Assembly (NCBI RefSeq): GCF_029227855.1
Contig: NZ_CP074356.1
Source of the DNA: Escherichia coli
Lineage (GTDB): Bacteria > Pseudomonadota > Gammaproteobacteria > Enterobacterales > Enterobacteriaceae
Direction: 5' to 3' (one strand)
DNA: 64,000 bases
A program made the translations under genes and the position numbers. Shown in pieces: positions 2,020 to 17,691 of this stretch (positions are counted from its first letter, which is position 1; every line of letters starts with the position of its first letter). Below the pieces are notes generated by a model. The model was not told the DNA's origin and searched no databases. It worked only from the letters and a program-made list of their open reading frames with translations.

Positions 2020-2417
2020 ACCGACATACACAAATCCGCCAGGTCGTACTGGCACGCCTTCGGGAACAGTGTGGAGACAGCGCCACGTTTTTTGACGGGC
2101 TTCCGGCATTTATTGATGCGCAGGAACTGCCTGCCGTGGCGGTGTGGCTGAGTGATGCTCAGTACACCGGAAAAATGACGGATGAAGATGACTGGCAGGC
2201 TGTTCTGCATATTGCCGTCTTCATCCGGGCACAGGCACCGGATTCAGAGCTGGATATGTGGATGGAGAGCACCATTTTCCCGGCCCTGAATGATGTACCG
2301 GCACTTTCCGGACTCATCGACACCCTGAACCCACTCGGTTTTAACTATCAACGTGATAATGAGATGGCCACCTGGGCGATGGCGGAAATCACGTACCAGA
2401 TCACGTACACGAATTAA
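2016..2417 (+). CDS. Tail terminator protein (lambda gpU-like)
   Basis: Shares recalled lambda U motifs (ATFFDG, PAVAVWL, PDSELDMWMES, PAL) and ends ITYQITY. Confidence 0.85.
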   Translation: MNRHTQIRQVVLARLREQCGDSATFFDGLPAFIDAQELPAVAVWLSDAQYTGKMTDEDDWQAVLHIAVFIRAQAPDSELDMWMESTIFPALNDVPALSGLIDTLNPLGFNYQRDNEMATWAMAEITYQITYTN

Positions 2418-2427
2418 GGAGGTGGTA

Positions 2428-3171
2428 ATGACCACACCAAATCCACTGGCAAAGACGAAAGGTGCGGGGACGACGTTCTGGATGTATACCGGCAACGGCG
2501 ATGCGTTTGCGAACCCTTTGTCGGACACTGACTGGCTGCGTCTTGCGATGGTGAAGGATCTGCAACCTGGCGAAATGACCGCTGATGCAGAAGATGACAC
2601 TTATCTCGATGATGAAGATGCAGACTGGAAAACGACAACCCAGGGGCAGAAATCCGTTGGTGATACTTCGGCGACGCTGGCCTGGCGTCCGGGTGACAGC
2701 GGGCAGAAAAAACTGGTTCAGTTGTTCGACTCCGGTGAAGTCTGCGCGTTTCGTATCAAATATCCCAACGGCACTGTTGATGTTTTCCGTGGCTGGCTGA
2801 GCTCACTGGGTAAAACCATTGCCTCAAAAGACGTGATGACCCGCACTGTGAAAATCAGCGGTGTGGGGCGTCCGTATCTGGCAGAGGAAGGCACTGAAAC
2901 CGTGAGCGTTACCGGGCTGACAGTATCACCGGCGTCTGCCAGTGTAAAAGTGGGAGCAACCACCACGCTGACCTTTACAGTAAAACCTGACGGAGCCAGT
3001 GACAAAGCGATCAGTGTGCATTCGTCAGATCCACAGACTGCCACGGTTACCCTGAACGGACTTGTGGCCACGGTAAAAGGCGTGAAGCAGGGCAGTGTCA
3101 GCATTGTGGGCATGACCGCTGACGGGAATTTTGTGGCTGTGGCTGCGGTGACTGTCAGCGCCGCAGGTTAA
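2428..3171 (+). CDS. Major tail protein (lambda gpV-like) with C-terminal Ig-like (Big_2) domain
   Basis: ATG at 2428 follows an AAGGAGGTGG Shine-Dalgarno; 247 aa; C-terminus is a Thr/Val-rich beta domain typical of V. Confidence 0.9.
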   Translation: MTTPNPLAKTKGAGTTFWMYTGNGDAFANPLSDTDWLRLAMVKDLQPGEMTADAEDDTYLDDEDADWKTTTQGQKSVGDTSATLAWRPGDSGQKKLVQLFDSGEVCAFRIKYPNGTVDVFRGWLSSLGKTIASKDVMTRTVKISGVGRPYLAEEGTETVSVTGLTVSPASASVKVGATTTLTFTVKPDGASDKAISVHSSDPQTATVTLNGLVATVKGVKQGSVSIVGMTADGNFVAVAAVTVSAAG

Positions 3172-3191
3172 CAGGACGATACTCATCATTT

Positions 3192-3219
3192 GCCCCGGTT
3201 ATCCGGGGCTTTTTTGCAG
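3192..3219 (+). terminator. Intrinsic terminator-like hairpin between V and G
   Basis: GCCCCGG-TTAT-CCGGGGC stem followed by TTTTTT. Confidence 0.55.
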
Positions 3220-3228
3220 GTGGAGAAC

Positions 3229-3618
3229 ATGATGTTTCTGAAACAGGGCACGTTTAATTATGAAAAACAGTCCGTGGTGCTCAGTGAGCTGTCCGGGCTG
3301 CAGAGAATTGAATATCTGGCGTTTGTTCAGCAGCGAACGGCAAAGTTTGATGCCGGTGAGGGAGAACTGCCGGAGGCTGAACGACAGATTGCTTTTCTGC
3401 GGATGGGGATGGATATCAATGCCTGGCTGGTTTCCCGCTCACTGTGGAATGCGGATCAGTCTAAGGATGTAGAGACGCTTTGCGCATCCGTTATTACAAC
3501 ATGGTCGTATGATGCCCTGGGTGCGGGGGCGGAGATGGTTCTGTCGCTGAGCGGTATGGGGGCCATTGATAATGCCGGGGATGATGAGCATGAGGCGCTG
3601 ACGCCGGAAAAGTCCTGA
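3229..3618 (+). CDS. Tail assembly chaperone (lambda gpG-like)
   Basis: 129-aa ORF; GGTGGAG Shine-Dalgarno before ATG 3229; sits before the tape measure gene. Confidence 0.85.
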   Translation: MMFLKQGTFNYEKQSVVLSELSGLQRIEYLAFVQQRTAKFDAGEGELPEAERQIAFLRMGMDINAWLVSRSLWNADQSKDVETLCASVITTWSYDALGAGAEMVLSLSGMGAIDNAGDDEHEALTPEKS

Positions 3619-3956
3619 CGCGGGAAATGCAGTTTGTCATGCGGCTTGCCCGGGAGTTCCGACGGGCAGACTGGCGGCGGATGCTGTCGGAAATGTCGGC
3701 CACTGAGCTTGGTGAGTGGGGCGATTATTTCCGGATGCAGAGCTTCAGTGATGTGTGGATGGATGCGCAGTTTGCCTCGCTGAAGGCATTGATCGTGAGA
3801 ATGGTGTCCGGCAGCAGTGATGCTGCGGTGGCTGATTTCAGCCTTTTACCGGAAGAGAACGGGATACCGGAGCGAACGGACGAAGAACTGATGCATCTTG
3901 GGGAAGGTATTTCCGGAGGTGTGCGTTATGGACCAGATAGCCAACCTGGTCATTGA
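3594..3956 (+). CDS. T-frame extension of the G-T fusion chaperone (reached by -1 frameshift from G)
   Basis: The -1 frame is open from 3594 and overlaps the last 8 codons of G; candidate slip site GGAAAAG at 3606-3612. Confidence 0.65.
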   Translation, partial: GADAGKVLTREMQFVMRLAREFRRADWRRMLSEMSATELGEWGDYFRMQSFSDVWMDAQFASLKALIVRMVSGSSDAAVADFSLLPEENGIPERTDEELMHLGEGISGGVRYGPDSQPGH

Positions 3957-6900
3957 TTTGGGGATTGATGCGGCAGAGTTTAAAAATGAAATCCCCCGTA
4001 TCAAAAACCTTCTGAATGGTGCAGCCAGCGATGCAGAACGGTCTTCTGCCCGTATGCAGCGTTTTATGGAGCGTCAGACTCAGGCCGCCCGGCAGACAAC
4101 GCAGGCGGCGTCTTCGGCTGCAACAGCCGCATCCGTCCATGCGCAGACAGTGGAGAAGAACGCACAGGCTCATGAACGCATGGCCCGCGAGGTGGAGAAA
4201 ACCCGCCAGCGCATGGAGGCGCTGAGCCAGAAAATGCGCGAGGAACAGGCGCAGGCCATGGCTCTGGCGGAGGCTCAGGATAAAGCGGCTGCTGCGTTTT
4301 ATCGTCAGATTGACAGTGTGAAACAGGCCAGTGCGGGGCTGCAGGAATTACAGCGTATTCAGCAGCAGATCCGACAGGCCAGAAACAGTGGCGGGATTGG
4401 TCAGCAGGATTATCTGGCGCTGATTTCTGAGGTTACGGCGAAAACCCGTGTTCTTACACAGGCTGAGGAAGAGGCTACCCGACAGAAAGTGGCGTTTATC
4501 CGTCAGCTTAAAGAGCAGGCAACCCGCCAGAATCTTTCTTCTTCTGAGTTGCTTCGTGCTAAGGCTGCCCAGCTGGGGGTAAGCAGTGCTGCAGAAGTGT
4601 ATATCCGCAAAATGGAGCAGGCAGGAAAAGCCACGCATTCGCTGGGTCTGAAAAGTGCAGCGGCCCGTCAGGAGATAGGCGTTCTGATAGGTGAACTGGC
4701 CCGCGGAAATTTAGGTGCGCTGAGGGGATCCGGAATAACGCTGGCTAACCGTGCCGGGTGGATAGACACATTGATGTCACCGAAAGGCATGATGCTTGGC
4801 GGGGTTATTGGCGGTATTGCCGCGGCTGTCTATGGTCTGGGTAAAGCCTGGTATGACGGTCAGAAGGAGGGGGAAGAATTTAACCGCCAGCTGTCGCTGA
4901 CGGGGCATTATGCCGGAGTCACTGCCGGGCAGCTGTGGACGCTCAGTCGTGCTATTTCCGGGAATGGTATCACGCAACATGCTGCAGCCGGTGCGCTGGC
5001 TCAGGTGGTGGGTAGTGGTGCATTTCGTGGAAACGATATCGGTATGGTGGCGAGAGCTGCCGCACAGATGGAGCGATCGGTTGGCCAGTCGATCAGCGAT
5101 ACCATAAATCAGTTTAAGCGGCTGAAGGATGATCCTGTAAATGCCGCGAAGGCTCTGGACAATGAGCTGCATTTTCTTACTGCCACTCAGCTTGAGCAGA
5201 TACGTGTCCTTGGGGATCAGGGACGGTCCAGTGATGCTGCACGGATAGCCATGTCTGCACTGGCAGAGGAAACCGGTCGGCGTACTGCGGATATTGATAA
5301 TAACCTCAATGCGCTTGGTAGTACGCTGAAGTATCTGTCTGATTTGTGGAGTCGTTTCTGGGATGCGGCCATGAATATTGGTCGTGAAGACTCGCTGGAT
5401 GAACAAATTGCCGCTTTACAGGAGAAAGTGTCGCGGGCGAAAAGACTCCCCTGGACGGCATCATCTTCTCAGGTTGAATACGATCAGCAGCGTCTTAACG
5501 ATCTTCAGGAGAAAAAACGCCAGAAGGATTTGCAGGATGCAAAAGAGCAGGCAGAGCGGAATTATCAGGAGCAACAGAAACGCCGTAATGCTGAAAATGC
5601 TGCACTGAACCGGATGAATGAAACTGAAGCAGCACGGCATCAGCGTGAAATTGCGCGTATTAATGCCATGCAGTACGCCGATCAGGCTGTCAGGGATGCG
5701 GCGATACAACGTGAAAATGAACGTTACGAGAAAGCCCTGGCATCCGGTAAGAAAAAAACACGCGAAACCCGTAATGATGAGGCCACCCGGTTATTGCTGC
5801 AGTACAGTCAGCAACAGGCACAGGTGGAAGGGCAGATTGCTGCTGCAAGACAGTCAGCAGGCATTGCCACTGACAGGATGACAGAAGCGCATAAACAGCT
5901 TCTGGCTCTGCAGCAGCGCATCAGCGACCTGGACGGGAAAAAACTGACGGCAGATGAAAAGAGTGTGCTTGCCCGTAAAGATGAACTGATTCAGGCATTG
6001 ACGCTGCTGGATGTAAAACAGCAGGAGCTTCAGAAACAGACGGCACTCAACGAGCTGAAGAAAAAAACAATTCAGCTGACCAGTCAACTGGCTGAAGAAG
6101 AGCGCGCTCAGCGTCAGCAACATGACCTGGATATCGCCACGGTGGGTATGGGTGATCAGCAGCGGCAGCGATATCAGGTACAACTGAGTCTTCGCCAGAA
6201 ATACCAGCAACAGCTGGAGCAGTTGAGGCGGGATAGTGAGCGGAAAGGGACATATAACACGGATGACTACAGAAAGGCCGAGCAGGCGCTGACGGAGAGC
6301 CTGAACCGACAACTGAGTGAGAATCGCCGTTACTGGCAACAGCTTGAAATTGCTCAGGGTGACTGGAAAAACGGAGTCCTGCGTGCACTCCAGAATGTCA
6401 CTGAGAATGCGGATAACACAGCCGGGACAGTGGAACAGTTGTTCACGTCTGCGTTCAGTAGCATGAGTGACTGGCTGGCGACATTCTGTACTACAGGCAA
6501 ACTCAATTTCAAATCCTTCACCTCTTCTGTGCTGTCAGATATGTCCAGAATCATGGCTCAGATAGCTTTAATGAAAGCGGTAAAAGGCATTGCTTCCGCG
6601 CTGCCTTTTGATTTTGTAGCTAATGCTGATGGCGGTGTTTATCAGTCGGCTGATTTGAGTCGCTACAGTGGCACGGTGGTTAACCGTCCGACGTTTTTTG
6701 CTTTTGCAAAAGGCGCGGGTGTGATGGGGGAAGCTGGGCCTGAAGCCATTCTGCCACTGCGTCGTGGTGCTGACGGTAAGCTGGGGGTTGTGGCGGATAT
6801 TGGTGGTTCAGGTATGGCGATGTTTGCCCCGCAGTACAACATCGAGATCAATAACGATGGCACGAACGGGCAGATAGGTCCGGCTGCCCTGAAGGTGGTT

Positions 6901-6984
6901 TATGACCTTGGGAAAAAAGCGGCAGCGGACTTTATGCAACAGCAGGCCCGTGATGGTGGTCGGTTAAGTGGAGCATATCGGTAA
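3928..6984 (+). CDS. Tail tape measure protein (lambda gpH-like)
   Basis: 1018 aa, coiled-coil rich; N-terminus (MDQIANLVIDLGIDAA) and C-terminus (NNDGTNGQIGPAALKVVYD) match recalled lambda H; GGAGGTG Shine-Dalgarno before 3928. Confidence 0.9.
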   Translation: MDQIANLVIDLGIDAAEFKNEIPRIKNLLNGAASDAERSSARMQRFMERQTQAARQTTQAASSAATAASVHAQTVEKNAQAHERMAREVEKTRQRMEALSQKMREEQAQAMALAEAQDKAAAAFYRQIDSVKQASAGLQELQRIQQQIRQARNSGGIGQQDYLALISEVTAKTRVLTQAEEEATRQKVAFIRQLKEQATRQNLSSSELLRAKAAQLGVSSAAEVYIRKMEQAGKATHSLGLKSAAARQEIGVLIGELARGNLGALRGSGITLANRAGWIDTLMSPKGMMLGGVIGGIAAAVYGLGKAWYDGQKEGEEFNRQLSLTGHYAGVTAGQLWTLSRAISGNGITQHAAAGALAQVVGSGAFRGNDIGMVARAAAQMERSVGQSISDTINQFKRLKDDPVNAAKALDNELHFLTATQLEQIRVLGDQGRSSDAARIAMSALAEETGRRTADIDNNLNALGSTLKYLSDLWSRFWDAAMNIGREDSLDEQIAALQEKVSRAKRLPWTASSSQVEYDQQRLNDLQEKKRQKDLQDAKEQAERNYQEQQKRRNAENAALNRMNETEAARHQREIARINAMQYADQAVRDAAIQRENERYEKALASGKKKTRETRNDEATRLLLQYSQQQAQVEGQIAAARQSAGIATDRMTEAHKQLLALQQRISDLDGKKLTADEKSVLARKDELIQALTLLDVKQQELQKQTALNELKKKTIQLTSQLAEEERAQRQQHDLDIATVGMGDQQRQRYQVQLSLRQKYQQQLEQLRRDSERKGTYNTDDYRKAEQALTESLNRQLSENRRYWQQLEIAQGDWKNGVLRALQNVTENADNTAGTVEQLFTSAFSSMSDWLATFCTTGKLNFKSFTSSVLSDMSRIMAQIALMKAVKGIASALPFDFVANADGGVYQSADLSRYSGTVVNRPTFFAFAKGAGVMGEAGPEAILPLRRGADGKLGVVADIGGSGMAMFAPQYNIEINNDGTNGQIGPAALKVVYDLGKKAAADFMQQQARDGGRLSGAYR

Positions 6985-7313
6985 TGGAGACGTTTCACTG
7001 GAAAGTGCGCCCGGATATGAATGTGGTATCAGAGCCGAAAGTGGTGACAGTGAAGCTGGGCGATGGTTATGAACAGCGTCGTGCGGCGGGACTGAATAAC
7101 CAGTTGTCGACTTACAGCGTGACGATACGTGTTCGTAAATGTGAACACCCATCTTTAAAAGCCTTTCTGGAACGGCACGGTGGCGTCCGCGCATTTCAGT
7201 GGACGCCACCTTATGACTGGAAGCCGATCAGGGTGGTTTGTCGTAAATGGTCGGCAAGCGTGGGGGCGCTGTGGGTAACCATAACGGCAGATTTTGAACA
7301 GGTCGTGGCATAG
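6984..7313 (+). CDS. Minor tail protein (lambda gpM-like)
   Basis: 109 aa, same length as lambda M; start overlaps the H stop. Confidence 0.9.
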   Translation: METFHWKVRPDMNVVSEPKVVTVKLGDGYEQRRAAGLNNQLSTYSVTIRVRKCEHPSLKAFLERHGGVRAFQWTPPYDWKPIRVVCRKWSASVGALWVTITADFEQVVA

Positions 7314-7322
7314 GAGGCCCTG

Positions 7323-8021
7323 ATGCAGGATATTCCACAGGAAACACATCATGAGACGACACGCCTTACTCAGTCAGCCCAGGTGGTGCTCTGGGAAATC
7401 GATCTGACAGAGGTCGGTGGTGAACGTTATTTTTTCTGTAATGAGCAGAACGAAAAAGGTGAGCCGGTCACCTGGCAGGGGCGGCAGTATCAGGTATACC
7501 CTATTCAGGGGACGGGATTTGAACTGAACGGTAAGGGTAGTGCTGCCCGTCCGACACTGACGGTCTCTAACCTGCACGGCATGGTCACCGGGATGGTGGA
7601 AGACCTGCAGAGTCTGGTCGGCGGAACGGTGGTCAGGCGTAAGGTTTACGCCCGTTTTCTGGATGCGGTGAACTTCGTCAACGGAAACAGCGACGCCGAT
7701 CCGGAGCAGGAGGTGATCAGCCGCTGGCGCATCGAGCAGTGCAGCGAACTGAGTGCGGTCAGTGCCTCCTTTGTGCTCTCCACACCGACGGAAACGGATG
7801 GTGCTGTTTTTCCGGGGCGCATCATGCTGGCCAACACCTGCACCTGGACCTATCGCGGTGATGAGTGCGGTTATCATGGTCCGGCTGTCGCGGATGAATA
7901 TGACCAGCCGACGTCCGATATCACGAAGGATAAATGCAGCAAATGCCTGAGCGGCTGTAAGTTTCGCAATAACGTCGGCAACTTTGGCGGCTTCCTTTCC
8001 ATTAACAAACTTTCGCAGTAA
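7323..8021 (+). CDS. Minor tail protein (lambda gpL-like)
   Basis: 232 aa, same length as lambda L; Cys-rich C-terminus. Confidence 0.9.
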   Translation: MQDIPQETHHETTRLTQSAQVVLWEIDLTEVGGERYFFCNEQNEKGEPVTWQGRQYQVYPIQGTGFELNGKGSAARPTLTVSNLHGMVTGMVEDLQSLVGGTVVRRKVYARFLDAVNFVNGNSDADPEQEVISRWRIEQCSELSAVSASFVLSTPTETDGAVFPGRIMLANTCTWTYRGDECGYHGPAVADEYDQPTSDITKDKCSKCLSGCKFRNNVGNFGGFLSINKLSQ

Positions 8022-8025
8022 TCCC

Positions 8026-8769
8026 ATGACACAGACAGAATCAGCGATTCTGGCGCACGCCCGGCGATGTGCGCCAGCGGAGTCGTGCGGCTTCGTGGTG
8101 AGAACGCCGGAGGGGGAAAGATATTTTCCCTGCGTGAATATCTCCGGTGAGCCGGAGGATTATTTCCGGATGTCGCCGGAGGACTGGCTGCAGGCAGAGA
8201 TGCAGGGTGAGATTGTGGCGCTGGTCCACAGTCATCCCGGTGGTCTGCCCTGGCTGAGTGAGGCTGACCGGTGGCTGCAGGTGCAGAGTGATTTGCCGTG
8301 GTGGCTGGTCTGCCGGGGGGCGATTCACAAGTTCCGCTGTGTGCCGCATCTCACCGGGCGGCGCTTTGAGCACGGGGTGACGGACTGTTACACGCTGTTC
8401 CGGGACGCTTACCATCTGGCGGGGATTGAGATGCCGGATTTTACGCGGGAGGATGACTGGTGGCGTCACGGTCAGAATCTCTATCTGGATAATCTGGAGG
8501 CCACAGGGCTGTATCAGGTGCCGTTGTCAGCGGCGCAGCCGGGCGATGTGCTGCTGTGCTGTTTTGGTTCATCGGTGCCGAATCACGCCGCAATTTACTG
8601 CGGCGACGGCGAGCTGCTGCACCATATTCCTGAACAACTGAGCAAACGAGAGAGGTATACCGACAAATGGCAGCGACGCACACACTCCCTCTGGCGTCAC
8701 CGGGCATGGCGCGCATCTGCCTTTACGGGGATTTACAACGATTTGGTCGCCGCATCGACCTTCGTGTGA
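8026..8769 (+). CDS. Tail tip assembly protein (lambda gpK-like; MPN/JAB and NlpC/P60-type domains)
   Basis: HSHPGG motif typical of JAB/MPN; placed between L and I; 247 aa, longer than lambda K, overlapping I by about 100 nt. Confidence 0.8.
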   Translation: MTQTESAILAHARRCAPAESCGFVVRTPEGERYFPCVNISGEPEDYFRMSPEDWLQAEMQGEIVALVHSHPGGLPWLSEADRWLQVQSDLPWWLVCRGAIHKFRCVPHLTGRRFEHGVTDCYTLFRDAYHLAGIEMPDFTREDDWWRHGQNLYLDNLEATGLYQVPLSAAQPGDVLLCCFGSSVPNHAAIYCGDGELLHHIPEQLSKRERYTDKWQRRTHSLWRHRAWRASAFTGIYNDLVAASTFV

Positions 8770-12915: not shown

Positions 12916-13515
12916 ATGCGTAAAGTTTGTGCCGCCATTTTTTCCGCAGCCATTTGTCTGGCCGTATCCGGTGCGCCTGCATGGGCATCTGAACATCAGT
13001 CCACGCTGAGCGCGGGGTATCTTCATGCCTCGACGAACGTTCCCGGCAGCGATGATCTGAACGGGATTAACGTGAAATACCGTTATGAGTTTACGGACAC
13101 ACTGGGGATGGTGACGTCATTCAGCTATGCAGGAGACAAGAATCGCCAGCTTACCCGTTACAGCGATACCCGCTGGCATGAAGATTCCGTGCGTAACCGC
13201 TGGTTCAGCGTGATGGTGGGGCCGTCTGTGCGCGTGAATGAATGGTTCAGCGCGTATGCGATGGCGGGTATGGCTTACAGCCGTGTTTCGACTTTCTCCG
13301 GAGATTATATCCGCGTAACTGACAACAAGGGGAAAACGCACGATGTGCTGACCGGAAGTGATGACGGTCGCCACAGCGACACGTCTCTGGCATGGGGGGC
13401 TGGCGTGCAGTTTAACCCGACCGAATCCGTGGCCATTGATATTGCTTATGAAGGTTCCGGCAGTGGCGACTGGCGCACTGACGGTTTCATCGTTGGTGTC
13501 GGTTATAAATTCTGA
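12916..13515 (+). CDS. lom: Lom-like outer membrane beta-barrel protein (Ail/PagC/OmpX family)
   Basis: 199 aa with signal peptide, alternating aromatic beta strands and terminal Phe; sits after J as in lambda. Confidence 0.9.
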
Positions 13516-13569: not shown

Positions 13570-14272
13570 TGCACAGAAAACCCCCAGCTAGGCTGGGGGT
13601 TCCGGAAAGCTTTCAGCTTTGAGCCAGTTATTAAAACCCCTTTTGATTTGTTAAAACACTTTGCGGTCTGGCAACTGCAAGTGTCAAACAAGAAATCAAA
13701 AGGGGGTCCCAATGGGGAACGAAAAGAGCTTAGCGCACACCCGATGGAACTGTAAATATCACATAGTTTTTGCGCCAAAATACCGAAGACAGGTGTTCTA
13801 CAGAGAGAAGCGTAGAGCAATAGGCAGTATTTTGAGAAAGCTGTGTGAGTGGAAAAGCGTACGGATTCTGGAAGCTGAATGCTGTGCAGATCATATCCAT
13901 ATGCTTGTGGAGATCCCGCCCAAAATGAGCGTATCCGGGTTTATGGGATATCTGAAAGGGAAAAGCAGTCTGATGCTTTACGAGCAGTTTGGTGATTTGA
14001 AATTCAAATACAGGAACAGGGAGTTCTGGTGCAGAGGGTACTACGTCGATACAGTGGGTAAGAACACGGCGAAGATACAGGATTACATAAAGCACCAGCT
14101 TGAAGAGGATAAAATGGGAGAGCAGTTATCGATTCCCTATCCGGGCAGCCCGTTTACGGGCCGTAAGTAACGAAGTTGGATGCAAATGTCAGATCGTGTG
14201 CGCCTGTTAGGGCGCGGCTGGTAAGAGAGCCTTATAGGCGCATTTGAAAAACCTCCGGCTATGCCGGAGGAT
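13568..14272 (+). mobile_element. IS200-type insertion sequence (IS200/IS605 family); boundaries approximate
   Basis: About 0.7 kb, a single Y1 transposase gene, left-end hairpin AAAACCCCCAGC-TAG-GCTGGGGGTT and a second stem-loop over the tnpA ribosome binding site. Confidence 0.65.
13712..14170 (+). CDS. tnpA: IS200-type transposase TnpA (HuH Y1 transposase)
   Basis: 152 aa with an HxH-type motif (HIHMLVEI) and the usual IS200 TnpA length. Confidence 0.85.
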   Translation: MGNEKSLAHTRWNCKYHIVFAPKYRRQVFYREKRRAIGSILRKLCEWKSVRILEAECCADHIHMLVEIPPKMSVSGFMGYLKGKSSLMLYEQFGDLKFKYRNREFWCRGYYVDTVGKNTAKIQDYIKHQLEEDKMGEQLSIPYPGSPFTGRK

Positions 14273-14290
14273 ATTTATTGTGGAGTGGAT

Positions 14291-16696
14291 ATGGCAGCAG
14301 TAAAAATCTCAGGTGTGCTGAAAGATGGTGCGGGAAAACCAATACAGAACTGCACTATTCAACTGAAGGCAAAGCGTAACAGCACCACGGTACTGGTGAA
14401 CACGGTGGCTTCTGAAAATCCGGATGAAGCCGGACGTTACAGCATGGATGTTGAGTATGGCCAGTACAGCGTCACCCTGCTGGTTGAAGGTTTTCCGCCT
14501 TCACATGCCGGGACCATTACCGTCTATGAAGGCTCCAGACCAGGTACGCTGAATGATTTTCTCGGTGCCATGACGGAAGATGATGTCATGCCGGAGGCAT
14601 TGCGTCGTTTTGAGGCAATGGTGGAAGAAGTGGCACGCAACGCCGAAGCCGCCTCTCAGAGCGCAGCGGCGGCAAAGAAATCCGAAACTGCAGCGGCATC
14701 ATCAAAGAACGCGGCGAAAACCTCAGAAACGAATGCAGCTAATAGTGCACAGGCGGCAGCGACCTCAAAGACTGCATCGGCAAACTCCGCGACAGCAGCC
14801 AAAAAATCAGAAACCAACGCGAAAAATAGCGAGACAGCCGCAAAGACGAGCGAAACCAACGCAAAGTCCAGCCAGACGGCAGCGAAAACCAGCGAAACGA
14901 ATGCCAAAGCCAGTGAAACTGCGGCAAAAAACAGCCAGGTTGCAGCAGCCCAAAGCGAGAGCGCGGCAGCCGGTTCTGCGACTTCAGCAGCTGGATCAGC
15001 AACTGCTGCGGCTAACAGCCAGAAAGCTGCGAAGACGAGTGAAACTAACGCAAAGTCCAGCCAGACGGCAGCGAAGACCAGCGAAACGAATGCCAAAGCC
15101 AGTGAAACTGCGGCGAAAAGCAGTCAGGATGCAGCGGCCCAAAGCGAGAGTGCCGCAGCCAGTTCTGCAAGCGCGGCGGCTGCTTCTGCCACTGCATCAG
15201 CCAACAGTCAAAAAGCAGCAAAAACCAGTGAAACCAACGCAAAGGCGAGCGAGACTGCGGCGGCGAACTCGGCGCAAGCATCGGCAGCAAGCCAGACAGC
15301 AGCTAAAGCAAGTGAAGACGCAGCCAGAGAGTATGCAAGCCAGGCAGCGGAGCCGTATAAATATGTCTTACAGCCACTGCCTGATGTGTGGATACCGTTT
15401 AACGATTCACTGGATATGATTACGGGCTTTTCGCCATCATATAAAAAAATTGTTATTGGCGACGATGAAATAACAATGCCTGGCGACAAGATTGTAAAGT
15501 TTAAACGCGCATCGAAAGCAACTTACATTAATAAATCTGGTGTGCTGACAGAGGCTGCCATTGACGAGCCACGATTTGAACGTGATGGCCTGCTTATTGA
15601 GGGGCAAAGAACTAACCTGCTAATCAATTCAACAAATCCGACTAAATGGAACAAGTCGTCAAATATGATCTTAAGTGCATCAGGTGTAGATGATTTCGGA
15701 TTCCAGTACGCAAAATTTACATTAAAACCAGAAATGGTAGGGCAAATTTCAGCGATTAACATAGTAACCGTTTCCGGCAGTAAAGGTTTTGATGTAACAG
15801 GCGGAGAAAAGTATGTAACCATATCATGCAGGGTGCAAAGTGGCACTCCAAATTTAAGATGCCGATTACGATTTGAAAACTATGATGGTTCTACCTACAC
15901 ATTCTTAGGTGACGCTTACTTAAATACGACAGATTTATCTATTGATAAGACGGGTGGTGCCGCTAATCGCATTACTGCAAGGGCTGTTAAAGATGAAGCA
16001 AGCAAATGGATCTTTTTTGAGGCGACAATTAAGGCACTTGATACAGAAAATATGATAGGTGGAATGGTTCAGTATGCCCCGGCAAAAGGAGTGGGCACTG
16101 GCGCGGATGATTATATTTATATTGCGACCCCTCAAGTTGAAGGTGGGGCGTGCGCTTCATCGTTTATTATAACAGGCGCATCCCCTGTAACACGCGCCAG
16201 CGATATTGTAACGGTCCCCATTTCTCTAAATTGGTGCAATCCCGCTATTAGTTCATTAGCAGAAGTTAATACCAATTGGGATGAATCGCCAAACAAAGAA
16301 GGTAGCGCACGTATTCTTAATATTTCCACTACGGGAGATACAACTGAAATTGCAGATGAAAGTTATATGTATTTGGGGTATACATCTTTGGGAGCACGCG
16401 CAATCATTACAAATGGTAAAGGCACTAAAATAGAATATAAAAGCGTTATAGAACGACCAGAGAGAAAAAGCATTATCGGCTTTAGATTCACAGAAAGTCG
16501 AGAATTGTGTGTTGTGGTTAACGGTAATATTGGTGCTAAGGTGGTTTCTCCTTATAAAAAACACAAATATACAGGAGGCTTCATTAATATTGGTGGTCAA
16601 TCATCATCCGGCAACCGTCACCTATTTGGACACGTTCGAAATCTGCGTATTTGGCACAAGGCATTGACTGATGCTCAGATGGGGGAGTCAATCTAA
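14291..16696 (+). CDS. stf: Side tail fibre protein: lambda Stf-like N-terminus, Ala/Ser/Thr-rich repeats, divergent C-terminus with LamG/concanavalin-like domain
   Basis: The first ~130 aa match recalled lambda Stf (MAVKISGVLKDG..QNCTIQLKAKRNSTT); the C-terminal region is AT-rich and ends in a LamG-type motif (NLRIWHKALTDAQM). Confidence 0.9.
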   Translation: MAAVKISGVLKDGAGKPIQNCTIQLKAKRNSTTVLVNTVASENPDEAGRYSMDVEYGQYSVTLLVEGFPPSHAGTITVYEGSRPGTLNDFLGAMTEDDVMPEALRRFEAMVEEVARNAEAASQSAAAAKKSETAAASSKNAAKTSETNAANSAQAAATSKTASANSATAAKKSETNAKNSETAAKTSETNAKSSQTAAKTSETNAKASETAAKNSQVAAAQSESAAAGSATSAAGSATAAANSQKAAKTSETNAKSSQTAAKTSETNAKASETAAKSSQDAAAQSESAAASSASAAAASATASANSQKAAKTSETNAKASETAAANSAQASAASQTAAKASEDAAREYASQAAEPYKYVLQPLPDVWIPFNDSLDMITGFSPSYKKIVIGDDEITMPGDKIVKFKRASKATYINKSGVLTEAAIDEPRFERDGLLIEGQRTNLLINSTNPTKWNKSSNMILSASGVDDFGFQYAKFTLKPEMVGQISAINIVTVSGSKGFDVTGGEKYVTISCRVQSGTPNLRCRLRFENYDGSTYTFLGDAYLNTTDLSIDKTGGAANRITARAVKDEASKWIFFEATIKALDTENMIGGMVQYAPAKGVGTGADDYIYIATPQVEGGACASSFIITGASPVTRASDIVTVPISLNWCNPAISSLAEVNTNWDESPNKEGSARILNISTTGDTTEIADESYMYLGYTSLGARAIITNGKGTKIEYKSVIERPERKSIIGFRFTESRELCVVVNGNIGAKVVSPYKKHKYTGGFINIGGQSSSGNRHLFGHVRNLRIWHKALTDAQMGESI
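14837..15214 (+). repeat. In-frame tandem duplication, 2 x 189 bp (63 aa each), inside stf
   Basis: Two near-identical 63-aa units (AAKTSETNAKSSQTAAKTSETNAKASETAAK...ANSQK) within a wider 9-aa periodic region. Confidence 0.8.
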
Positions 16697-16977
16697 TGAA
16701 AGATTTAACACTCAAATTTGCCGACAGGGCCGATTTTTCGGCCTTTATGGGAAGTATTGGCTATTATAATGACGAGTCGATGCAGGATGATATTCTGATT
16801 GATGTGATAGGTAACGTGTACAAAGAAACCGGAGAGCTGACTGAAGATGGCGAACCGGTATGTGTTAAGGAAGATGGATATTTTGTAAACGTGCGCATCA
16901 TTAAGGATACGCAAATATCGTCATTATTCGATGAATACGCGGTTGCTGTTGAGCATCAACTTCGTGGCTGGATGTGA
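16696..16977 (+). CDS. Hypothetical small acidic protein, translationally coupled to stf
   Basis: 93-aa ORF whose ATG overlaps the stf stop (TAATG); AT-rich; no family recognised. Confidence 0.5.
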   Translation: MKDLTLKFADRADFSAFMGSIGYYNDESMQDDILIDVIGNVYKETGELTEDGEPVCVKEDGYFVNVRIIKDTQISSLFDEYAVAVEHQLRGWM

Positions 16978-16986
16978 GGTAGAGAA

Positions 16987-17691
16987 ATGGCTACATCAAC
17001 AGTAATTCCGGGAGACATCACCACGCTGAAGGGAGATGTTAGTAAAGCAAAGGAAGATATTTCCTCTATTAACGGAAAAGTATCAACGCTTCAGACTGAT
17101 ATGGCCAGTGCAAAGCAGGATATCAGCACCAGATACACAAAAACTGAAGTTGATAATAAGCTGAAAAACAAAGTGGAAGTGAACGATCTGGAAAGTGGTC
17201 GTTATGGCGGAGATTTTTACCCGCTGACTGGCCGTGAAGCGTTTTATTTATGGGGATTGGGCACAACTACAGCGGCGGCAAATCTTTATCTTAATCCTGA
17301 CCCTGCAATTTCGTCTGTGCTGCGGTCAACATCGTCTATCCGCTATAAACATTCAGTAGAGACGATAGATTCAGAGCACGCCGATCTCATTTTCAGGATG
17401 CGCCCTGTGTGGTACAGGTCGCAATGCGAAAATGACAGGCGTGACTGGGGATTCTATGGATTGATTGCCGAGGAAGTTGGAGAAATTGCCCCTCAGTTTG
17501 TTCACTGGCGACCAGCCAACGAAGATGATGCACCGGAAACCATTTCCAGCAATGGCCTTGTTGCCGAAGGTGTAATGTACGAACGTCTGGTTGTTCCACT
17601 GATTCACCATATCCAGAAGCTGACTGAAAGAGTTGATGAACTTGAGTCAGAATTAAAGTTGTTATCCGTTTCCCGAAGCGATATCGGATAA
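16987..17691 (+). CDS. Short fibre-like protein: N-terminal coiled coil plus C-terminal intramolecular-chaperone (Peptidase S74-like) domain
   Basis: 234 aa; heptad-like N-terminus; C-terminal region has S-x-x-R-x-K (SSIRYKH), RPVWYR and GLIAEEV motifs resembling endosialidase chaperone domains. Confidence 0.55.
   Translation: MATSTVIPGDITTLKGDVSKAKEDISSINGKVSTLQTDMASAKQDISTRYTKTEVDNKLKNKVEVNDLESGRYGGDFYPLTGREAFYLWGLGTTTAAANLYLNPDPAISSVLRSTSSIRYKHSVETIDSEHADLIFRMRPVWYRSQCENDRRDWGFYGLIAEEVGEIAPQFVHWRPANEDDAPETISSNGLVAEGVMYERLVVPLIHHIQKLTERVDELESELKLLSVSRSDIG

Follow-up and report, generated by a model that had tools for sequence, protein, structure and literature searches.

A diverged, in-frame duplication of nine heptads in the putative coiled-coil rod of a lambda-type side tail fibre from Escherichia coli

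The 64,000-nucleotide stretch of Escherichia coli DNA analysed here (assembly GCF_029227855.1, contig NZ_CP074356.1; hereafter the window) carries a gene that is assigned, from sequence comparisons, to the lambda-type side tail fibres (Stf), and the rod-encoding part of this gene contains two tandem units of 189 bp. It is very probable that this part encodes the proximal rod of the fibre, a helical trimeric coiled coil, in which a block of 63 residues was duplicated long ago through out-of-register pairing of repeats and has since been lost on occasion. The anatomy of the repeats, their divergence, the helix prediction, the distribution of the two-copy form in the population and the existence of chimeric one-copy alleles are direct results of the present analysis. 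The features concerned are as follows, with positions given in the window and residues given for the enclosing open reading frame (ORF):

14291..16696, plus strand: stf, side tail fibre gene (ORF listing, starts of homologues, PF08400, match to PDB entry 9e7m)
14648..15340, plus strand: heptad-repeat rod of 33 uninterrupted heptads, ORF residues 130-360 (heptad layout, autocorrelation, composition by position)
14837..15025, plus strand: unit 1 of the 189-bp (63-aa, nine-heptad) tandem duplication (Tandem Repeats Finder and unit alignment)
15026..15214, plus strand: unit 2 of the same duplication (Tandem Repeats Finder and unit alignment)
15215..15262, plus strand: partial third copy, beginning AAKTSETNAKASET (the period-189 array reaches 15262)

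In the rod DNA, Tandem Repeats Finder detects an array of period 189 that spans 14828-15262 (2.3 copies with 83% matches and free of indels), together with nested periods of 21 and 42 bp. The two units, already recognized in the initial annotation, are real and in phase with the stf reading frame, each encoding 63 residues. They had also been described as nearly identical in DNA, whereas self-comparison gives 160 identical positions out of 189 (84.7%) and 56 identical residues out of 63 (88.9%). The 29 nucleotide differences affect 18 codons synonymously and seven non-synonymously, which corresponds to a synonymous divergence (dS) of 0.80 and a non-synonymous divergence (dN) of 0.05, and the longest exact run common to the units in register is 38 bp. 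Identity is uneven along the unit, being 94% in the first 84 bp and 77% in the last 105 bp (Fisher p = 0.002), with dS values of 0.33 and 1.54, respectively. Since other in-register 189-bp blocks of the shaft are only 49 ± 4% identical (maximum, 60%), the duplication is real and stands well above the heptad background. The rod is repetitive at three levels, comprising the heptad, a 14-residue repeat (AAKTSETNAKxSxT), and the 63-residue block of nine heptads in two copies. The first 28 residues of each unit consist of two of the 14-residue repeats (AAKTSETNAKSSQT and AAKTSETNAKASET), and a further AAKTSETNAK lies directly 3′ of unit 2 at 15215, 189 bp from the start of that unit, where, judging from its sequence, it could serve as a downstream repeat able to pair out of register.

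Within the rod, a heptad with the consensus [A/N]-A-[K/A]-x-S-[E/Q/A]-[T/S] recurs with a period of seven residues (21 bp), unbroken over 231 residues; of the 33 heptads, 30 have Ala at position 2 and 32 have Ser at position 5. Autocorrelation of the amino-acid sequence stays near 0.5 at all lags that are multiples of seven, reaches 0.66 at lag 63, and is 0.09-0.21 at other lags. A shaft built of nine-residue repeats had been proposed, but a nine-residue period was sought in the autocorrelation of the rod protein and none was found (lag 9, 0.148, is background); the claim is probably a mix-up with the nine heptads per unit. Uninterrupted heptads with conserved positions three and four residues apart are the pattern of a coiled coil, and Ala and Ser at heptad positions 2 and 5 fit the a/d core spacing. 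AlphaFold2, run on the single sequence as a monomer, predicts helix across ORF residues 106-239 and 247-362, with a predicted local distance difference test score (pLDDT) of 84-93 over most of the first half, the sole break being located in the Gly-containing heptads of unit 1.

In the tail of the phage Ur-lambda, residues 102-393 of Stf have been described as the proximal coiled-coil domain of a trimeric fibre, and the rod was modelled as a trimeric bundle on the basis of cryo-EM and cryo-ET (PMC12617516). By this analogy, 14648-15340 would encode the proximal rod as a trimeric coiled coil, in which the Ala of position 2 and the Ser of position 5 occupy the a/d positions; three chains would wind around one another, and the rod so formed would keep the receptor-binding C-terminal domain at a distance from the tail tip. 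The rise of a helix is about 0.15 nm per residue, and each 63-residue unit should therefore add approximately 9 nm to the rod.

With regard to the spread of the two-copy form, an 861-bp query across the rod was compared with 5426 complete E. coli genomes. A match was present in 2444 of them, and in 968 a single place covers at least 80% of the query; the rows listed for such places, an evenly spaced sample of the ranking, all had exactly the length of the query (23 of 23) at 93-99% identity. The two-copy form is the common one in this stf allele family. Its age can be judged from three independent two-copy alleles, those of the window, of E. coli 24A16CRGN010 (locus L002) and of a further related locus (L004), in which unit 1 and unit 2 carry different fixed states at 24 sites and orthologous units are 96-100% identical. 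These fixed differences, together with the similarity of orthologous units, indicate that the duplication is older than the divergence of the three alleles and, as far as sequences can tell, has been kept under purifying selection.

Length variants were surveyed in the best 120 protein clusters, with the rod measured from ARNA to the first Pro. The rod is 240 aa long in 45 clusters and 229 aa long in 58, all of the latter having a different distal junction and most having a second unit that is one heptad shorter and ends like unit 1. Six clusters have a rod of 177 aa, exactly one unit fewer, and single clusters are shorter by 7, 14, and 28 aa; in E. coli EFF60 (locus L007), 28 aa are absent between two AA(K/A)NSQ heptads. 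One-copy rods occur in the isolated phage IdasGreatGrand (PP925829, locus L001) and in E. coli CB209 (locus L006), and the C-terminal domains that follow such rods are of several different kinds. The alleles of IdasGreatGrand and CB209 share with the window the N-terminal domain, the heptads, the rod/C-domain junction EPYKYVLQP and about 94% nucleotide identity on both sides of the unit, but hold exactly one 63-residue unit (rod of 177 aa), which resembles unit 1 over the first 21 nt and unit 2 from nt 51. In CB209, diagnostic sites 3, 6, 15, and 21 of the unit are in the unit-1 state and the 20 sites that begin at nt 51 are all in the unit-2 state, and the IdasGreatGrand allele shows the same switch with minor exceptions. 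Under retention of a single ancestral unit, its four unit-1 states would coincide with exactly the first four of the 24 sites with a chance of 1 in 10,626. The one-copy unit of both loci is what an unequal crossover within nt 22-50 of the unit, where the two copies are identical, would leave behind, to the extent that sequence patterns allow such events to be read. In another cluster (P0120), the unit-1-type NSQV is kept and the crossover lies later, which points to a second, independent event and hence at least two in all.

The expectation that the rod varies in length by recombination or slippage was thus borne out by the chimeric one-copy alleles and by the variants shorter by 7, 14, and 28 residues. 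As for repeat number across related prophages, one-copy and partial-unit alleles do exist but are rare, and no three-copy allele was found. A synthetic unit1-hybrid-unit2 DNA query against the complete E. coli genomes returned only two-copy sequences at the top, as did a three-copy protein query against a collection of 5.8 billion sequences, although three-copy alleles of lower identity may lie further down in the rankings. Likewise, none of 149 clusters had a rod longer than 240 aa, and a literature search on heptad duplication and length variation in tail fibres returned nothing relevant.

Homologous pairing out of register, between AAKTSETNAK-coding repeats 189 bp apart, is the most likely origin of the 63-residue duplication. 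The same pairing would occasionally delete one unit, joining the 5′ end of unit 1 to the 3′ end of unit 2, and the same process would delete smaller whole-heptad blocks. The order of events could also be reversed, with the one-copy form being ancestral and the two-copy form made once by unequal crossover between two diverged one-copy alleles, so that the units differed by about 15% from the start. The strongly uneven dS along the unit would be hard to obtain by uniform decay of identical copies, the alleles of IdasGreatGrand and CB209 are plausible candidates for the second parent ("allele B"), and a one-copy rod evidently works in an isolated phage. However, such an origin would call for a one-copy allele with a unit-1-type 3′ half (GSATSAAGSATAAANSQK), of which there was none among the 149 clusters, and the different crossover point of P0120 is most simply explained by a second deletion from a two-copy parent. 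This origin is therefore regarded as unlikely, if worth keeping in mind; under either origin, the two-copy form is old and widespread.

The initial annotation had instead described a recent, near-identical duplication that acts as an active slippage hot spot and collapses in short-read assemblies. The period-189 array is indeed real, length variants exist, and short contigs account for many "partial" proteins among the database homologues. Nevertheless, a recent origin is contradicted by the dS of about 0.8, by the unit-specific differences fixed across the three two-copy alleles, and by some 970 complete genomes with a form of constant length; all sampled full-coverage matches were of identical length, and no three-copy allele turned up among the top-ranked sequences and the clusters surveyed. 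Collapse in assembly is also unlikely with a longest shared run of 38 bp, and many draft contigs of 2-3 kb (down to approximately 2.5 kb) hold both copies intact, the breaks falling downstream of the rod. This description is thus largely refuted and very improbable. A different view of the protein, which takes the Ala/Ser/Thr-rich stretch for a disordered low-complexity linker or for a beta-structured shaft, could draw on its low-complexity composition, on the atypical Ala/Ser "core" and on the fact that the segment is without a solved structure, the modelled part of 9e7m ending at residue 94. Its chances appear very slim, given the strict seven-residue phase over the whole rod, the confidently predicted helix and the trimeric bundle modelled for the Ur-lambda rod (PMC12617516), as well as the triple-helical bundle of the depolymerase DpK2 (PMC8552709) described below.

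Several points weigh against a coiled-coil rod shaped by whole-unit loss. Coiled coils seldom have a core as small as one of Ala and Ser, and the AlphaFold2 model is of a monomer only and folds back on itself at the Gly-containing heptads. It was reported that full-length Stf models of Ur-lambda fold back as well, and these were judged by their authors to be inconsistent with tomograms (PMC12617516). The direction of change, that is, loss of units and not gain, is read from chimera patterns in sequences, and the copy-number survey is based on sampled rows and the best 120 database clusters per search. In addition, not all variants come in multiples of seven (P0044, P0046, P0052, P0058, and P0087): a variant shorter by 4 aa (P0044; rod of 236 aa) is represented by eight member sequences from seven contigs, and single clusters are shorter by 12, 5, 30, and 41 aa. 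Either the heptad register is not strictly preserved, in which case these variants may introduce stutter-like breaks into it, or some of them are sequencing errors.

Comparison with known fibres places the rod more precisely. The closest system is the Stf of Ur-lambda (2025, Sci Adv, PMC12617516), whose collar domain is homologous and about 90% identical over residues 2-94. As in lambda, the gene lies after J and lom, and an Ala/Ser-rich helical rod directly follows the collar and linker. Measured from ARNA to the first Pro, the rod of lambda (NC_001416) has 267 aa and that of the window 240 aa; the latter has much more regular heptads and a 63-residue duplication that lambda is without, and the C-terminal half of the Stf described here is unrelated to the gp37-like distal domain of lambda. 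A weaker likeness (E = 0.0017 over 43 residues) was found to the N-terminal part of DpK2, the depolymerase of Klebsiella phage RAD2 (PDB 7LZJ), which shares a short stretch of KTSE-NAKSS-NAAKNSE-type heptads (KTSEDNAKSSENAAKNSE). This part of DpK2 was described as an extended triple-helical bundle by low-resolution cryo-EM and was not modelled atomically (PMC8552709); the rest of DpK2 is a beta-helix depolymerase, unlike the Stf described here.

The identification of the gene rests on its N-terminal domain and its neighbours, of which the following are needed here:

14297..14686, plus strand: N-terminal tail-attaching collar domain, ORF residues 13-142 (PF08400; the profile extends into the first heptads)
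13572..14273, plus strand: IS200-family insertion, with tnpA at 13661-14170 (alignment gap against L001, L004, and L006; Y1_Tnp; junction sequences)

PF08400 ("prophage tail fibre N-terminal") matches with E = 5.6e-67 and 224 bits (cut-off, 26.6), and residues 2-94 of lambda Stf in PDB 9e7m, the Ur-lambda tail structure, match the N-terminus with E = 8.7e-49. In Ur-lambda, residues 1-94 of Stf form a collar around gpV/gpM (PMC12617516). The gene lom lies upstream at 12916-13515 (PF06316), gpJ is placed further upstream by synteny with annotated E. coli prophages, and the window is syntenic with gpJ-lom-(IS200)-stf loci. The assignment of the gene to Stf, and of the repeat region to its shaft, as proposed in the initial annotation, therefore agrees with the N-terminal domain, the match to 9e7m, the J-lom-stf order and the Ur-lambda rod.

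The mechanical ORF that encloses the whole flagged stretch (14261-16696, plus strand, 811 aa) is longer than the gene. Its start at 14261 falls in the right end of the IS200-family element and gives rise to a false N-terminal extension of 10 codons. The homologous proteins begin with MAAVKISG, the uninterrupted locus L004 passes directly from the lom terminator to tggagtggatATG, and uninterrupted loci read ...gggcttttttgtggagtggatATG at the lom-stf junction. From these starts and junctions, the ATG at 14291, preceded by GGAG, is most likely the true start of stf. The IS200-family element sits exactly between the lom terminator hairpin and the ribosome-binding site of stf, 17 bp 5′ of the stf ATG, and contains an Rfam STnc490 match at 13579-13702. 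The same insertion is found in E. coli 24A16CRGN010 and EFF60 and not in L001, L004, or L006. From its position, the insertion might exert a polar effect on the expression of stf.

In the C-terminal half of Stf, a gp37-like distal domain was sought by Pfam and no such match was found. This half matches a "phage head spike fiber domain" module that is also present in T1-like and T5-like phages. The first part of the domain (about 15337-16220) is 85-87% identical at the nucleotide level to tail-fibre genes of T1-like (tuinn, tunus, and XY3) and T5-like (VSe12 and BUCT632) phages and, on this comparison, appears to be a receptor-binding module common to unrelated phage groups. Stf of the window can thus be viewed, at the level of sequence, as a different distal module on a lambda-like proximal scaffold. 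A Peptidase_S74 intramolecular-chaperone domain normally forms the C-terminal end of a fibre protein and not a stand-alone gene. Here, stf is followed by an ORF of 93 aa (16696-16977; conserved, phrog_1361, function unknown) in place of a lambda-type tfa, and the Peptidase_S74 domain is encoded as a separate gene in the next ORF (16987-17691, 234 aa).

Nucleotide similarity to other prophage stf genes ends at recurring points, namely 14643, about 14870, 15181, 15249, and 15580-15616. These correspond to the boundary between the N-terminal domain and the rod (query position about 383), to places inside the rod (606-612, 921, and 989), and to a region just after the rod/C-domain junction (1320-1356). 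Such a pattern suggests that the rod may act as a recombination linker for the swapping of distal modules. A broader proposal, which is considered improbable, is that rod length is a selected, quantised trait, in which changes by heptad blocks (nine heptads, about 9 nm) tune the reach of the receptor-binding domain through capsule or O-antigen layers that differ in thickness, and that the regular heptad DNA is kept in part as an in-register recombination linker for swaps of distal modules.

The rod region also contains long ORFs in other frames, which had been noted as spurious:

14580..15419, plus strand: spurious ORF of 279 aa in the +1 frame of the rod (synonymous shuffles; no Pfam match)
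14656..15096, minus strand: spurious antisense ORF of 146 aa, counterpart of lambda orf206b (synonymous shuffles; no Pfam match)

Further minus-strand ORFs lie at 15045-15290 and 15208-15489. The +1 frame remained free of stops in 1000 of 1000 synonymous-codon shuffles, and in the frame of the 146-aa ORF, 63% of the shuffles had as few stops or fewer. Pfam searches of the other-frame products gave no match, and the predicted products are repeats rich in Arg, Gln, Pro, and Lys. These ORFs are by-products of composition, in agreement with the initial annotation. Their length, and the annotation of comparable ORFs in lambda (orf206b, which lies over the orf-401 rod) and in EFF60 (a minus-strand hypothetical protein), might speak for a real overlapping gene; yet there is next to no chance of this, as the plus-strand ORF is open in every shuffle, the minus-strand ORF is typical of shuffles, and their products have the repetitive composition and lack of Pfam matches just described. 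One of the clusters surveyed for rod length (P0117) is a frameshift into the open +1 frame.

The importance of these observations is small and mostly of a housekeeping kind. A rod structure of this kind has already been described for lambda, hundreds of sequenced genomes contain the allele, and no new mechanism is revealed. The rod provides an instance of nested repeats in a tail fibre, with length changing in whole-heptad steps by unequal recombination. For the engineering of chimeric Stf fibres, it is of use that the rod can accommodate one unit or two and can be combined with many distal domains. For annotation, pipelines tend to fragment or pseudogenise intact stf ORFs of this family and to call spurious ORFs in other frames.

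In RefSeq/PGAP, the stf genes of 24A16CRGN010 (6032-8437 of the locus) and EFF60 (2199-4406) are marked as incomplete pseudogenes or split into fragments. A single uninterrupted ORF runs through each of them (798 and 732 aa, respectively), and the pseudogene calls look like an annotation artefact of a repeat-rich mosaic gene and not real decay. Among the database homologues, the majority are "partial" proteins, 470-630 aa long, cut off downstream of the rod by the edge of a contig. Draft assemblies thus tend to break in the C-terminal half of stf, probably because parts of this half occur in several prophages of one genome; the median number of matching places per genome is 2, with up to 13.

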